NCBI RefSeq assembly: GCF_058153355.1
Contig: NZ_CM177019.1
Reading direction: 5' to 3' (one strand)
DNA: 64,000 bases
Position 1 is the stretch's first letter. The number at the start of each line of letters is the position of its first letter. The position numbers were made by a program. Below are positions 58,501 to 61,500 of the stretch, in pieces.

Positions 58501-61500
58501 GACTTCGCAATACAGGTTGTTACCTTCACGCTCGAAAATCGGGTGCTGTTTAACCTGAACCTGAACGTACAGATCGCCTGCCGGTGCGCCATGCTCGCCC
58601 GCTTCACCTTCGCCCGCAAGACGGATGCGGTCTCCAGTGTCCACTCCTGCCGGGATTTTAACGGACAGCGTTTTGCTGCGCTCAACACGACCATGACCAT
58701 GACATTTGTTGCACGGATCTTTGATCAGCGTACCGCGGCCCTGACAGTGTGGACAGGTCTGCTGTACAGCGAAGAAGCCCTGGCGCATCTGCACCTGACC
58801 AGAGCCATGACAGGTCGGACAGGTCTGCGGCTGTGTACCTGGTTTTGCACCGCTACCGTGGCAAACGTCACACTCTTCCAGAGTCGGAATGCGGATCTCT
58901 TTGGTCACGCCACGTACAGCTTCTTCGAGGGTGAGCTCCATGTTATAGCGTAAATCAGCACCGCGCGCCGCACGTTGACGACCACGTCCGCCGCCAAAAA
59001 TATCGCCGAAAACGTCACCAAAAATATCGCTGAAGTCTGCGCCGCCGCCAAAACCGCCGCCGCCCATGCCGCCTTGCTCAAACGCAGCATGACCATACTG
59101 ATCGTATGCCGCACGTTTTTGCGAGTCGGTCAGAACTTCATAAGCTTCCTTGATCTCTTTAAATTTCGCCTCGGCCTCTTTGTCACCCTGGTTACGGTCC
59201 GGGTGGTATTTCATGGCCAGGCGTTTGTAGGCCTTTTTGATTTCACGCTCTTCCGCTGTTTTGGAAACGCCTAAAATCTCGTAATAATCTTGCTTAGCCA
59301 TCTTTTTTGATTTGCCCCTAGATGAATGCACGGGCGGAGAGGAAATTCCCCTTCGCCCGTGTCAGTATAATTACCCGTTTATAGGGCGATTATTTTTTGT
59401 CTTTGACTTCTTCAAATTCAGCGTCGACAACATCGTCATCTTTCTCGTTGTTTGCAGAAGCATCAGCACCGGCAGTCTGCTGCTGGGCATGTTGCTGCTG
59501 GGCGATTTCCATCAGTTTCTGGGAAACCTGTGCCAGTTCCTGCATTTTCGCTTCGATAGCGGCTTTGTCTTCACCTTTCAGAGCAGTTTCCAGTGCAGTC
59601 AGCGCAGACTCGATAGCAGTTTTGTCGTCAGCCGGCAGTTTGTCGCCTGCTTCTTCAACCTGCTTACGGGTGCTGTGCAGCAGATGGTCGCCCTGGTTGC
59701 GAGTCTGTACCAGCTCTTCAAACTTACGGTCAGCTTCGGCGTTCGCTTCTGCGTCGCGTACCATTTTCTGGATTTCATCTTCGTTCAGACCAGAAGAAGC
59801 CTTGATGGTGATCTTCTGCTCTTTACCGCTGTTTTTATCTTTCGCGGAAACGTGCAGGATACCGTCAGCATCGATATCGAAGGTAACTTCGATCTGCGGC
59901 ATGCCGCGCGGTGCCGGGTTGATACCATCCAGGTTGAACTGACCCAGAGATTTGTTATCAGCTGCACGTTTACGTTCACCCTGCAGCACATGGATGGTTA
60001 CCGCAGACTGGTTGTCTTCAGCGGTAGAGAACACCTGGCTGTGCTTGGTCGGGATAGTGGTGTTTTTCGCGATCAGCGTCGTCATCACACCGCCCATGGT
60101 TTCGATACCCAGAGACAGCGGGGTAACGTCCAGCAGCAGTACGTCTTTTACGTCACCAGTCAGAACACCACCCTGAACAGCAGCACCGATGGCTACAGCT
60201 TCGTCCGGGTTAACGTCTTTACGCGGCTCTTTACCAAAGAATTCAGCAACTTTCTTCTGAACCATTGGCATACGAGTCTGACCACCAACGAGGATAACGT
60301 CGTCGATATCAGATACGGACAGGCCAGCGTCCTGCAGTGCAACTTTCAGCGGCTCAATGGAACGGTTTACCAGGTCTTCAACCAGGCTTTCCAGTTTCGC
60401 ACGAGTCACTTTGATGTTCATGTGTTTCGGACCGGTCGCGTCTGCAGTGATATACGGCAGGTTAACGTCGGTCTGCTGAGCGGAAGAAAGTTCGATTTTC
60501 GCTTTTTCTGCCGCTTCTTTCAGGCGCTGCATTGCCAGCGGATCGTTGCGCAGGTCAATGCCCTGATCTTTTTTGAATTCTTCAACCAGATAGTTAATCA
60601 GACGGCTGTCGAAGTCTTCACCACCCAGGTGGGTATCACCGTTGGTTGCCAGAACTTCGAAGGTTTTTTCGCCGTCAACTTCGTCGATTTCGATAATAGA
60701 AATATCGAAAGTACCACCACCCAGGTCATAAACCGCGATAGTACGGTTGCCAGTACCTTTGTCCAGACCATAAGCCAGCGCAGCTGCGGTCGGTTCGTTG
60801 ATGATACGTTTTACTTCCAGACCAGCGATACGGCCTGCGTCTTTGGTTGCCTGACGCTGAGCATCGTTAAAGTATGCCGGTACGGTAATAACCGCTTCAG
60901 TTACCGGTTCGCCCAGGTAATCTTCCGCGGTTTTCTTCATTTTTTTCAGCACTTCAGCAGAAATCTGCGGCGGTGCCATTTTTTGGCCTTTAACTTCGAC
61001 CCAAGCGTCGCCGTTATCAGCAGCAATAATTTTGAACGGCATGATGGAAACATCACGCTGTACTTCTTCGTCCTGGAAGCGGCGGCCAATCAGGCGTTTA
61101 ATCGCAAACAGGGTGTTTTGCGGGTTTGTCACTGCCTGACGTTTAGCCGGCTGACCAACCAGAGTTTCACCATCCTGGGTATAGGCAATGATAGAAGGCG
61201 TGGTGCGATCGCCTTCGGCGTTCTCCAGTACACGAGGAGTGGTGCCATCCATAATCGCTACACAAGAGTTGGTAGTACCCAGGTCGATACCAATTATTTT
61301 ACCCATCTAAACGTCTCCACTATATATTCGGTCATCATGTGGTTGTGAGTCTGTAATAGGGGCGAAACGTTTGGTTTCAACAGCCCAATTTCATTTTTTT
61401 TGCAGACTCACTCACTGCGGTTGACTACTAAATGGGGTCGTAACCCACGTCATCAAGGGGGAGATGCAAAAATTTTTTGTGCTTTTGCGCAGAAATTTCG

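Follow-up and report, generated by a model that had tools for sequence, protein, structure and literature searches.

The spacer between dnaK and dnaJ in the window analysed here, a stretch of 64,000 nt from contig NZ_CM177019.1 (RefSeq assembly GCF_058153355.1), is the already catalogued tpke11 element at its canonical position, and is in this respect ordinary and known. It may serve as a cis-acting structured segment of the dnaK-dnaJ mRNA that uncouples the levels of dnaK and dnaJ mRNA, a reading to which we assign a probability of about 0.5, and tpke11 is probably not a stand-alone small RNA (sRNA) gene. As the outcome of a genome scan this is routine, a catalogued Rfam family found where it is expected. 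The distinction is nevertheless of practical importance, as DnaK and DnaJ are needed in very unequal amounts from a single operon, and if the spacer is treated as part of the mRNA and not as an sRNA gene, the sensible experiments shift from overexpression in trans to mutation of the hairpin in cis.

The two genes were identified by matches of 99.7-100 % to the annotated genes in 5,424 of 5,426 complete E. coli genomes. The dnaK gene is a 99.7 % match to the annotated dnaK of E. coli genomes, and DnaJ is 100 % identical to E. coli and E. albertii loci. The coordinates of the features are listed in Table 1. The ORF coordinates and the sequence bear out the 88-bp gap described in the initial annotation, which was likened there to K-12 in length and position. 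In sequence, 2 of the 88 positions differ from K-12, both inside the A-rich linker. The spacer is present as a single copy, with at least 96.4 % identity, in 5,424 of the 5,426 complete E. coli genomes.

The initial annotation had suggested a tpke11-like small RNA region, on position, and an Rfam covariance search as the check. This search was positive, with a match to RF02031 (tpke11) at 59302-59379 on the minus (mRNA-sense) strand scoring 68.8 bits (E 4.4e-14), relative to the curated gathering score of 43 bits. The match is full-length (model positions 1-77 of 77), it sits in the dnaK-dnaJ gap in the orientation of the two genes, and the long conserved hairpin of the family (GCACGGGCG...CGCCCGUGC) is present. 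On the plus strand, the match to the spacer reaches just 22.1 bits. All 20 Enterobacterales spacers scanned pass the RF02031 threshold (47.8-85.2 bits); in Vibrionales and Alteromonadales the hairpin core is present, but the scores (at most 32.2 bits) fall below it. Genera in which a longer, variable hairpin takes its place do not conserve the first small hairpin of RF02031. There is no sequence difference between the spacer and tpke11 as catalogued (E. coli b4414, a candidate sRNA of Rivas et al. 2001). The identification as the tpke11 locus stands; the small RNA part of the suggestion is doubtful, as the spacer lacks a promoter and terminator and the RNA ends are unmapped. It is the label "Gene; sRNA" given to RF02031, and not membership of the family, that is in question.

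Table 1. Features of the dnaK-dnaJ locus, in window coordinates
Feature	Position	Strand	Details	Basis
dnaJ CDS	58171..59301	minus	376 aa; ATG at 59299-59301	ORF list and sequence
dnaK-dnaJ intercistronic spacer	59302..59389	minus	exactly 88 nt	
A-rich unstructured linker ahead of dnaJ AUG	59302..59313	minus	AAAUCAAAAAAG	sequence, fold
G-run	59314..59320	minus	UAGGGGC; sole Shine-Dalgarno-like purine run ahead of dnaJ	
Main hairpin P3	59329..59361	minus	CACGGGCG-A-AGGGGA-AUU-UCCUCU-C-CGCCCGUG	
Invariant hairpin core, 3' arm	59331..59336	minus	CGCCCG	48-sequence comparison
Invariant hairpin core, 5' arm	59354..59359	minus	CGGGCG	48-sequence comparison
Post-stop segment	59373..59387	minus	GCCCUAUAAACGGGU	fold of first 24 nt, -4.8 kcal/mol
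dnaK CDS	59390..61306	minus	638 aa; stop TAA at 59390-59392	ORF list
Second sigma-32-type promoter upstream of dnaK	61354..61381	minus	GTTGAAA-13-CCCTATTA	11/14 match
Sigma-32-type promoter upstream of dnaK	61430..61457	minus	CTTGATG-13-CCCCATTT	12/14 consensus match

The sense strand of the spacer folds at -32.7 kcal/mol (z -4.18), and none of 200 shuffled sequences was equally stable. In the main hairpin, P3, helices of 8 and 6 bp are separated by a 1x1 A.C internal loop and capped by a 3-nt loop; one or two further closing pairs are possible, and with its flanks P3 folds at -24.7 kcal/mol. A search of the 64-kb window for ACGGGCG-N8-25-CGCCCGT gives a single match, compared with 0.01 expected. 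Together with the Rfam E value and the stability of the fold, this places the element beyond chance. On the dnaK side, the post-stop segment is predicted to form either a local hairpin, P1 (GCCC/GGGU), or, via its GCCCU, a helix with the downstream G-run (P0), and the MFE structure of the whole spacer picks P0 (GCCCU:GGGGC) over P1. The GCCC right behind the dnaK stop codon is conserved in Enterobacterales. The G-run, which doubles as 3' arm of the predicted P0, has its last G 13 nt ahead of the dnaJ AUG, and the columns of the A-rich linker are poorly conserved (alignment A1).

For conservation of the hairpin, 48 distinct sequences were compared, drawn from Enterobacterales, Vibrionales and Alteromonadales. 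The core CGGGCG/CGCCCG does not vary in these, except for one U.G, and the outer and upper pairs of P3 covary around this fixed core. Overall, 89.5 % of P3 cells are paired, both sides change in 8 of the 14 pairs, and the covariation score of 0.213 (0.142 when shuffled) was reached by none of 500 shuffles. Across 42 Enterobacterales, the 14-nt hairpin arms are identical at 587 of 588 positions (99.8 %), compared with 57 % identity at the four-fold synonymous sites in dnaJ codons 1-70. The hairpin is retained even in two AT-rich reduced symbionts. These sequence comparisons point to strong purifying selection on the hairpin, which is the only strongly selected feature of the spacer. An RNAalifold consensus on the raw MAFFT alignment was muddled because the variable hairpins were misaligned, and an RNAalifold pairing of UCGCC with dnaJ GGCGA codons was rejected as it is broken in E. 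coli, which has a GCU codon, and in 11 of 43 sequences. A hairpin downstream of dnaJ, considered as a control for ordinary drift, was dropped because the downstream neighbourhood is not orthologous between genera.

It is the mRNA-sense strand that carries the structure. Of the 42 Enterobacterales spacers, 34 fold more stably in sense than in antisense, with a mean difference of 5.2 kcal/mol, and G.U cells (48) outnumber A.C cells (21, 9 of which are a register artefact). The strong purifying selection and the sense-strand structure together support a cis-acting mRNA element. However, the E. coli spacer on its own folds slightly better in antisense (-36.4 kcal/mol, z -5.0, versus -32.7 kcal/mol), and this counts against it. 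We note the alternative that the palindrome acts on the other strand or as DNA, namely as an antisense RNA or as an inverted repeat bound by a protein. This would account for invariance of the core sequence itself and not of its pairing alone, and the 6-bp core arms are indeed unvarying; two A.C mismatches that the E. coli lineage has in the sense hairpin would be G.U pairs on the antisense strand, and a weak sigma-70-like site on the plus strand (59261-59288) is directed into the spacer. That site, a 9/12 match, is at chance level (3 found, 2.6 expected) and sits in codons constrained by the DnaJ N-terminus. As the sense strand is favoured across the family, the plus-strand Rfam score is low, and the covarying upper stem and variable arm spacing suit a single strand that folds rather than a dimeric operator, we regard action on the other strand or as DNA as highly improbable. 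An antisense gene was rejected on two of these grounds, a plus-strand promoter at chance level and a sense strand favoured family-wide. A dispersed repeat of the REP/BIME/ERIC type was also rejected, as each of 5,424 E. coli genomes has the element at one place only, and the hairpin pattern is found a single time in the window and a single time at each locus.

No expression signals belonging to the spacer itself were found. On the minus strand within the spacer, there is no sigma-70-like promoter and the terminator scan detected no intrinsic terminator, and a 719-nt scan over the final 600 nt of dnaK and the spacer detected no sigma-32-like promoter. The best sigma-32-like score there, 9/14, was attained by 96 % of shuffles, whereas the dnaK promoters score 12/14 and 11/14. 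The absence of autonomous promoter and terminator signals has also been reported for Sodalis (PMC6887450) and Salmonella (PMC12077118), and supports the reading as a cis-acting mRNA element. The stronger of the two promoters upstream of dnaK, which we take to be a known dnaK heat-shock promoter, probably gives rise to the transcript containing the spacer.

The history of the annotation is in keeping with this. The annotated 89-nt Tpke11 is the whole spacer plus the A of the dnaJ ATG, and an annotation that is simply the bare spacer indicates that the ends of the RNA were never mapped. Later workers lengthened Tpke11 to 371 nt, extending 283 nt into dnaJ, to fit the original Northern blot, and a construct of that size exceeds the 88-nt spacer. 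Databases and the literature list a dnaK-tpke11-dnaJ transcription unit, and Tpke11 has been placed among RNAs processed from longer transcripts (PMC8313858). The current annotation of NC_000913.3 has no tpke11 feature, though the sokC ncRNA is there, and tpke11 is not mentioned in PMC3318445.

Tpke11 could still be a genuine trans-acting sRNA, released from the dnaKJ transcript or separately transcribed, that pairs with pgsA, prlC and yehU. Fragments of these three mRNAs were gel-shifted in vitro (PMC6172242), and later papers cite the Northern signal behind the original naming (Rivas 2001), co-immunoprecipitation with Hfq on microarrays (Zhang 2003) and, in PMC12077118, a PhoP-dependent down-regulation inside fibroblasts. 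The co-immunoprecipitation and the three gel-shift targets leave some room for a trans-acting role. However, the RNA tested was the artificial 371-nt construct that runs into dnaJ, the ends of Tpke11 being unmapped, and the spacer has neither a promoter nor the U-tailed terminator typical of Hfq-dependent sRNAs. The proposed interaction regions (nt 10-24 and 80-89) are the least conserved columns of the 43-sequence alignment, the invariant hairpin takes no part in the proposed interactions, and no conserved single-stranded seed of the kind expected of a trans-acting sRNA is found in the spacer. Overexpression of Tpke11 gave no biofilm, motility or fimbriae phenotype, no Hfq dependency was seen in the INTERFACE study, and the K-12 RefSeq record in its current form no longer includes the feature. 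Transposon insertions annotated to tpke11 attenuate S. Enteritidis in macrophages (log2FC -3.32), but this is as expected from a polar effect on dnaJ. The sRNAs cut out of mRNAs, from 3'-UTRs or within operons, with which Tpke11 was grouped in PMC8313858 (such as CpxQ, SroC and SroD) likewise have no promoter of their own, but they carry the U-tailed terminator of the parent and conserved seeds, and tpke11 has neither. Taken with both sides of this evidence, a trans-acting Tpke11 appears distinctly unlikely.

Under the reading we favour, as a cis-acting mRNA element, the spacer would be transcribed from the sigma-32 promoters upstream of dnaK, and its working part would be the hairpin at 59329-59361, marking the point where the operon transcript is split or ended. 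RNA containing only dnaK would then accumulate, and the dnaJ part would be scarcer and decay separately, such that splitting or ending at the hairpin would help to set the high DnaK:DnaJ ratio. The route could be endonuclease cleavage in or next to the stem, or weak termination, and the blot signal called "tpke11 RNA" would then come from a fragment or by-product of processing and not from a gene of its own.

Several published observations fit this proposal. The main dnaK band on Northern blots, at 2.1 kb, corresponds to dnaK alone plus some nucleotides at either end, and in tiling arrays dnaJ RNA was increased only in the RNase III (rnc) mutant (PMC3082872). In Salmonella in low Mg2+, dnaK RNA is about 2.5-fold more abundant than the intergenic and dnaJ regions, and PhoP destabilises the dnaJ part alone (PMC12077118). 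The dnaK-only band and the effects of RNase III and PhoP on dnaJ RNA are consistent with the hairpin as their cause, though the RNase III effect in the tiling arrays may be indirect. Other findings count against it. No mapped 5' or 3' ends at the hairpin were found in the literature searched, in which PMC3082872 and PMC12077118 were the only papers to bear on 3'-end mapping, RNase III sites or coupled translation of dnaK and dnaJ. The stem, at about 14 bp with an internal loop, is shorter than classic RNase III substrates. A Salmonella amplicon that ends at spacer position +49, inside the hairpin, was as low as dnaJ (PMC12077118). This speaks against the simplest form of the proposal, with dnaK mRNA ending in the hairpin as its protected 3' end. 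In addition, the core sequence is fixed across three orders, and a purely structural role fails to explain this.

If the hairpin were a leaky intrinsic terminator or attenuator, partial termination would yield the dnaK-only transcripts and a nuclease would be unnecessary. The hairpin is G+C-rich and lies right behind a highly expressed gene, like intrinsic terminators it forms a G+C-rich stem-loop immediately behind a stop codon, and the 2.1-kb band is compatible with termination there. Relatives outside Enterobacterales have a hairpin of the GGGCG...CGCCC type followed by UUUG or UUUUG, with a mean of 4.4 U in the next 8 nt and at least 5 U in 16 of 29 (Vibrionales and Alteromonadales), which suggests that a role in ending or splitting the transcript at this position is widespread and which also supports the cis-acting reading favoured above. 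In Enterobacterales, however, the mean is 2.5 U in 8 nt, with at least 5 U in just 2 of 23, and the tail in the window (UGCAUUCA) has just 3 U in the 8 nt past the core. Thus, the U-run 3' of the stem is degenerate in the E. coli spacer but often U-rich in Alteromonadales and Vibrionales. In all cases U was counted from the end of the G/C core; the ends of the MFE hairpin absorb U of the tail into A-U or G.U closing pairs. The minus-strand terminator scan was negative, the authors of the Salmonella study report no terminator-like sequence (PMC12077118), and the effects of RNase III and PhoP on the stability of dnaJ RNA indicate post-transcriptional events. Termination at the hairpin as the whole explanation is therefore considered unlikely.

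Hairpins between cistrons that act as stabilisers and give unequal expression of an operon include the malE-malF REP, Rhodobacter puf and papB-papA. The dnaK-dnaJ hairpin resembles these in being G+C-rich, in following the more abundant upstream cistron and in having a stable upstream-only transcript. Unlike the malE-malF REP it is single-copy and not dispersed. It also differs from a simple barrier to 3' exonucleases, in that the Salmonella amplicons put the break at or before the 3' half of the hairpin (PMC12077118). With the rpsO-pnp hairpin, where decay of the downstream message, pnp, begins with RNase III cleavage between the cistrons, it shares a stable hairpin between co-transcribed genes, a less stable downstream message and a downstream level that depends on RNase III. 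Unlike in rpsO-pnp, the dnaK-dnaJ stem is shorter (about 14 bp), and RNase III cleavage is here a candidate route. Classically, an RNase III site spans about two helical turns, compared with the 8 + 6 bp of P3 split by the 1x1 loop, and the rpsO-pnp type includes autoregulation by the downstream protein, of which none is known for dnaK-dnaJ.

The hairpin might be more than a structure for stability or termination, and the DnaK:DnaJ ratio might be set by a ribonuclease, some other protein or an RNA that recognises its sequence. In the long-spacer enterobacterial genera, the hairpin would be embedded in a closed three-helix domain that also hides the ribosome-binding region of dnaJ until a ribosome finishes dnaK. 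This proposal is speculative and unlikely, but a recognition site would explain why CGGGCG/CGCCCG is invariant across three orders while its surroundings drift or covary. In a 2025 Salmonella study, the DnaK:DnaJ ratio was found to be actively changed in Mg2+ starvation via the dnaJ part of the message and, as the sole strongly selected feature of the spacer, the hairpin is an obvious candidate for involvement in that mechanism.

A related possibility concerns translation of dnaJ. Pairing of the post-stop GCCC with the pre-dnaJ G-run (P0) would hide the ribosome-binding region, and a ribosome terminating on dnaK would melt P0, coupling synthesis of DnaJ to that of DnaK; in a variant, P0 could be an RNA thermometer. 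In almost all of the 42 Enterobacterales spacers P0 is the closing helix of the MFE structure, its mean duplex energy is -12.5 kcal/mol versus -7.9 kcal/mol with a shuffled 5' arm, and the complementarity is confined to one register, slid registers giving about 0 bp. In the long-spacer genera (Serratia, Yersinia, Hafnia, Photorhabdus and Pectobacterium), the G-run is predicted to be 0-5 % unpaired, rising to 31-94 % when the stop-codon region is masked. However, P0 does not covary (6.29 bp with the true partners and 6.29 bp with permuted partners), its 5' arm can form P1 instead, and a G-run 13 nt from the AUG may not be a functional Shine-Dalgarno sequence. In the window, P0 has just 5 bp, which was equalled by 10 % of shuffles, and in mRNA context the probability that the G-run is unpaired is 0.53 when free and 0.52 with a ribosome on the dnaK stop codon. 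With neither covariation nor masking by accessibility, Shine-Dalgarno masking and coupling by P0 was set aside for the E. coli sequence as a minor rival. Overall, translational control via P0 is very unlikely; modelling predicts a masking helix in the long-spacer relatives and does not support one in the E. coli sequence. The "dnaK motif" described by the Breaker laboratory (PMC11109978) is a different element, located upstream of dnaK.

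The initial annotation placed an 88-bp gap between dnaK and dnaJ, and this is borne out at 59302-59389. In an Rfam scan of 56000-62000, tpke11 (RF02031) matched the spacer over the full length of the model at 59302-59379, on the minus strand like dnaK and dnaJ, with 68.8 bits (E 4.4e-14). As the match is full length and exceeds the gathering score (43 bits), the tpke11 identification is correct; the spacer is a member of this family, every sequence-level property tested having been found, and the finding is already known. All 20 of the Enterobacterales dnaK-dnaJ spacers scanned pass the threshold (47.8-85.2 bits). 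The stretch is present as one copy per genome in 5,424 of 5,426 complete E. coli genomes (>=96.4 % identity), where the annotation over it is dnaK and dnaJ only. The strain is a non-K-12 E. coli, and its spacer differs from that of K-12 at two positions, both within the A-rich linker ahead of the dnaJ start.

Features of the dnaK-dnaJ spacer and flanking regions
Feature	Position	Strand	Details
dnaK	59390-61306	minus	from ORF list and sequence
dnaK-dnaJ spacer	59302-59389	minus	88 nt exactly
P1, small local hairpin	59373-59387	minus	GCCCU, 2 nt past the dnaK stop, able to pair with GGGU
P3, main hairpin	59329-59361	minus	CACGGGCG-A-AGGGGA-AUU-UCCUCU-C-CGCCCGUG
Short single-stranded stretch 3' of P3		minus	CAUUCAUC
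UAGGGGC, sole Shine-Dalgarno-like purine run	59314-59320	minus	
A-rich linker	after UAGGGGC	minus	AAAUCAAAAAAG
dnaJ	ATG 59299-59301, end 58171	minus	from ORF list and sequence
sigma-32-type promoter match upstream of dnaK	61430-61457	minus	from scan of window
sigma-32-type promoter match upstream of dnaK	61354-61381	minus	from scan of window

The same annotation proposed a tpke11-like small RNA. The tpke11 identity stands, but the evidence is mostly against a small-RNA gene. Neither a sigma-70-like promoter nor an intrinsic terminator was found on the minus strand within the spacer. Because dnaK is a heat-shock gene, sigma-32-type promoters were also sought; the two upstream of dnaK score 12/14 and 11/14, and the best match across the spacer and the final 600 nt of dnaK is 9/14, which 96 % of shuffles attain. 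The annotated 89-nt Tpke11 is the whole spacer plus one base. In the INTERFACE study, the RNA expressed to fit the original Northern was 371 nt long, extending 283 nt into dnaJ, and the spacer is least conserved in the interaction regions proposed there (nt 10-24 and 80-89). Overexpression of Tpke11 gave no phenotype in a screen of biofilm, motility and fimbriae. The current NC_000913.3 record has no tpke11 feature, though the nearby sokC is listed as ncRNA. RegulonDB-derived tables name the unit dnaK-tpke11-dnaJ, and Tpke11 has been listed with RNAs processed out of longer transcripts (PMC8313858). The spacer differs from an independently transcribed or Hfq-type sRNA in promoter, U-tailed terminator and conserved seed.

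For comparison, dnaK-dnaJ spacers were taken from 80 loci with close DnaJ relatives (Enterobacterales, Vibrionales and Alteromonadales). The window shares the hairpin core, CGGGCG...CGCCCG, with all the free-living Enterobacterales, two symbionts with reduced genomes and 12 loci of Vibrionales and Alteromonadales (Photobacterium, Enterovibrio, Salinivibrio, Vibrio, Shewanella, Aliidiomarina and Lacimicrobium). There is a single copy of the exact pattern ACGGGCG-N8-25-CGCCCGT in the 64-kb window (0.01 expected) and one in each fetched locus that has it, always in the spacer, ruling out a dispersed repeat. When the 48 distinct hairpins were aligned, standard pairs made up 89.5 % of pair cells, against at most 59.8 % in slid registers, and in 8 of the 14 pairs both partners change. 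The covariation score was 0.213, compared to 0.142 +/- 0.011 with shuffled partners (0/500 shuffles reach 0.213). All six core pairs are invariant apart from one U.G, and the lower arms (14 nt) match the window at 587 of 588 positions over 42 Enterobacterales, while identity at four-fold synonymous sites in dnaJ codons 1-70 is just 57 %. The hairpin is real and strongly selected, in part for the sequence itself. Relative loci L049, L050, L056 and L061 gave sub-threshold tpke11 matches of 25.7-34.7 bits. That the core reaches past the range in which the Rfam model passes threshold, and that its sequence is invariant over three orders, are modest additions to the record.

The sense fold of the spacer has a predicted energy of -32.7 kcal/mol (z -4.18; 0/200 shuffles equally stable), and the opposite strand also folds (-36.4 kcal/mol) because the hairpin is a near-palindrome. 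At the family level, the structure is a property of the mRNA-sense strand. The sense fold is the stronger in 34 of 42 spacers (mean margin 5.2 kcal/mol), and G.U pairs number up to 8-10 per sense fold versus 0-2 per antisense fold. The hairpin alignment contains 48 G.U cells, compatible with the sense strand only, versus 21 A.C cells, 9 of which are a register artefact. The E. coli lineage departs from this pattern, as two A.C mismatches make the antisense hairpin slightly stronger. A sigma-70-like site at 59261-59288 on the plus strand (TTGGAA-16-AATAAT, 9/12) is antisense to the first dnaJ codons and directed into the spacer; such sites are as numerous in the region as expected by chance.

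Two published transcript studies bear on the role of the spacer. Stead et al. found that the chief dnaK Northern band, 2.1 kb, is dnaK only with additional nucleotides at both ends, and that dnaJ RNA increases in the RNase III mutant only (PMC3082872). In a 2025 study of Salmonella starved for cytoplasmic Mg2+, dnaK RNA was about 2.5-fold above the intergenic and dnaJ regions, and PhoP destabilised the dnaJ part and not that of dnaK; the authors remarked that the spacer is unusually long and without a terminator (PMC12077118). Taken together with the anatomy, these reports indicate that the spacer is most likely a cis-acting intercistronic element, here proposed to uncouple dnaK and dnaJ RNA levels. 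The operon message would be split or ended at the element, one possible route being a nuclease cut within or next to the stem, which would resemble that at the rpsO-pnp intergenic hairpin. In Salmonella, the amplicon with one end in the hairpin had the same low level as dnaJ (PMC12077118), which argues against the hairpin as a mere protected 3' end of dnaK mRNA. The main alternative is leaky termination at the hairpin. Outside the Enterobacterales, 16 of 29 spacers have 5 or more U in the 8 nt after a hairpin at the same position, but within this order just 2 of 23 do, and the window has 3 U, so that its spacer lacks the U-tract of a canonical terminator. In its working, the spacer appears closest to a processing or stability hairpin between cistrons.

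Control of dnaJ translation was also considered. The minimum free energy folds of nearly all spacers from Enterobacterales contain an outer helix, P0, in which GCCC... after the dnaK stop is paired with the ...GGGC run ahead of dnaJ and which encloses the remaining hairpins. This suggests that the ribosome-binding region of dnaJ could be unmasked by a ribosome completing dnaK. The complementarity is genuine and specific to register, and masking the stop-codon region raises the predicted unpaired fraction of the G-run from 0-5 % to 31-94 % in Serratia, Yersinia, Hafnia, Photorhabdus and Pectobacterium. However, P0 shows no covariation, as helix length is 6.29 bp with both true and permuted partners, and in the window it is only 5 bp with the G-run about 50 % free in either state. 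Unmasking was therefore downgraded as unsupported for the window, and the E. coli spacer does not have the properties of a Shine-Dalgarno-masking element. The last G of UAGGGGC is 13 nt from the dnaJ AUG, a long distance for a Shine-Dalgarno sequence.

Two ORFs start within the spacer. A GTG at 59329-59331 (minus strand), in the 3' arm of P3, is in the dnaJ frame 10 codons before the ATG and gives rise to a 386-aa ORF (58171-59331); this extension is not conserved, as the same frame meets a stop in other genera (e.g. GUG CUC GUA UGU UAA in relative locus L005). A 678-aa ORF (59312-61348, plus strand) with a TTG start is antisense to nearly all of dnaK, and probably reflects dnaK codon usage rather than a real gene.

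Spacers of some relatives carry further differences. In three reduced-genome insect symbionts, the remainder of the spacer is AT-rich and unalignable; L049 and L050 retain the CACGGGCG...CGCCCGUG hairpin and L047 has a degraded form, CACGGUCG...UGCCCGUG. In Enterobacterales other than Enterobacteriaceae (L019-L046, e.g. L032 1389-1500, L024, L026 and L036), the post-stop segment is followed by an extra hairpin of 7-12 bp, P2, and then by the main hairpin. P2 is wholly different in sequence from genus to genus, yet it folds in every case; it is absent from E. coli and close relatives. The Mangrovibacter yixingensis spacer (L012 1254-1500) is 247 nt, with about 160 nt extra between the conserved hairpin and dnaJ. 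Pseudoalteromonas spacers (L058, L060, L063, L064, L070 and L080) are about 187-214 nt and contain a terminator-like hairpin, GGCGCGC...GCGCGCCUUUUG, followed before dnaJ by more conserved hairpins (e.g. GGUAAAUCGAU...AUCGAUUUAUC and GCAGC...GCUGC), possibly separate elements for the control of dnaJ.

The hokC/mokC-sokC toxin-antitoxin locus (57765-57917, plus strand; Rfam sok/hok, RF01794, 120.5 bits) lies downstream of dnaJ at a distance of about 250 bp. IS186, which separates dnaJ and hokC in K-12, is absent from this interval, and the layout is that of E. coli ATCC 11775. ORFs of 253 and 497 aa (55025-57300, minus strand) correspond by size and position to the OmpK outer-membrane protein and sulfatase genes after mokC in ATCC 11775, and occupy the place of nhaA in K-12; the region downstream of hokC is a strain-specific difference. 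On the other side of the operon, the region upstream of dnaK (61307-61750, minus strand) holds the two sigma-32-type promoter matches; a candidate structured "dnaK motif", PBC-38-1, has been published from the dnaK-satP intergenic region (PMC11109978).
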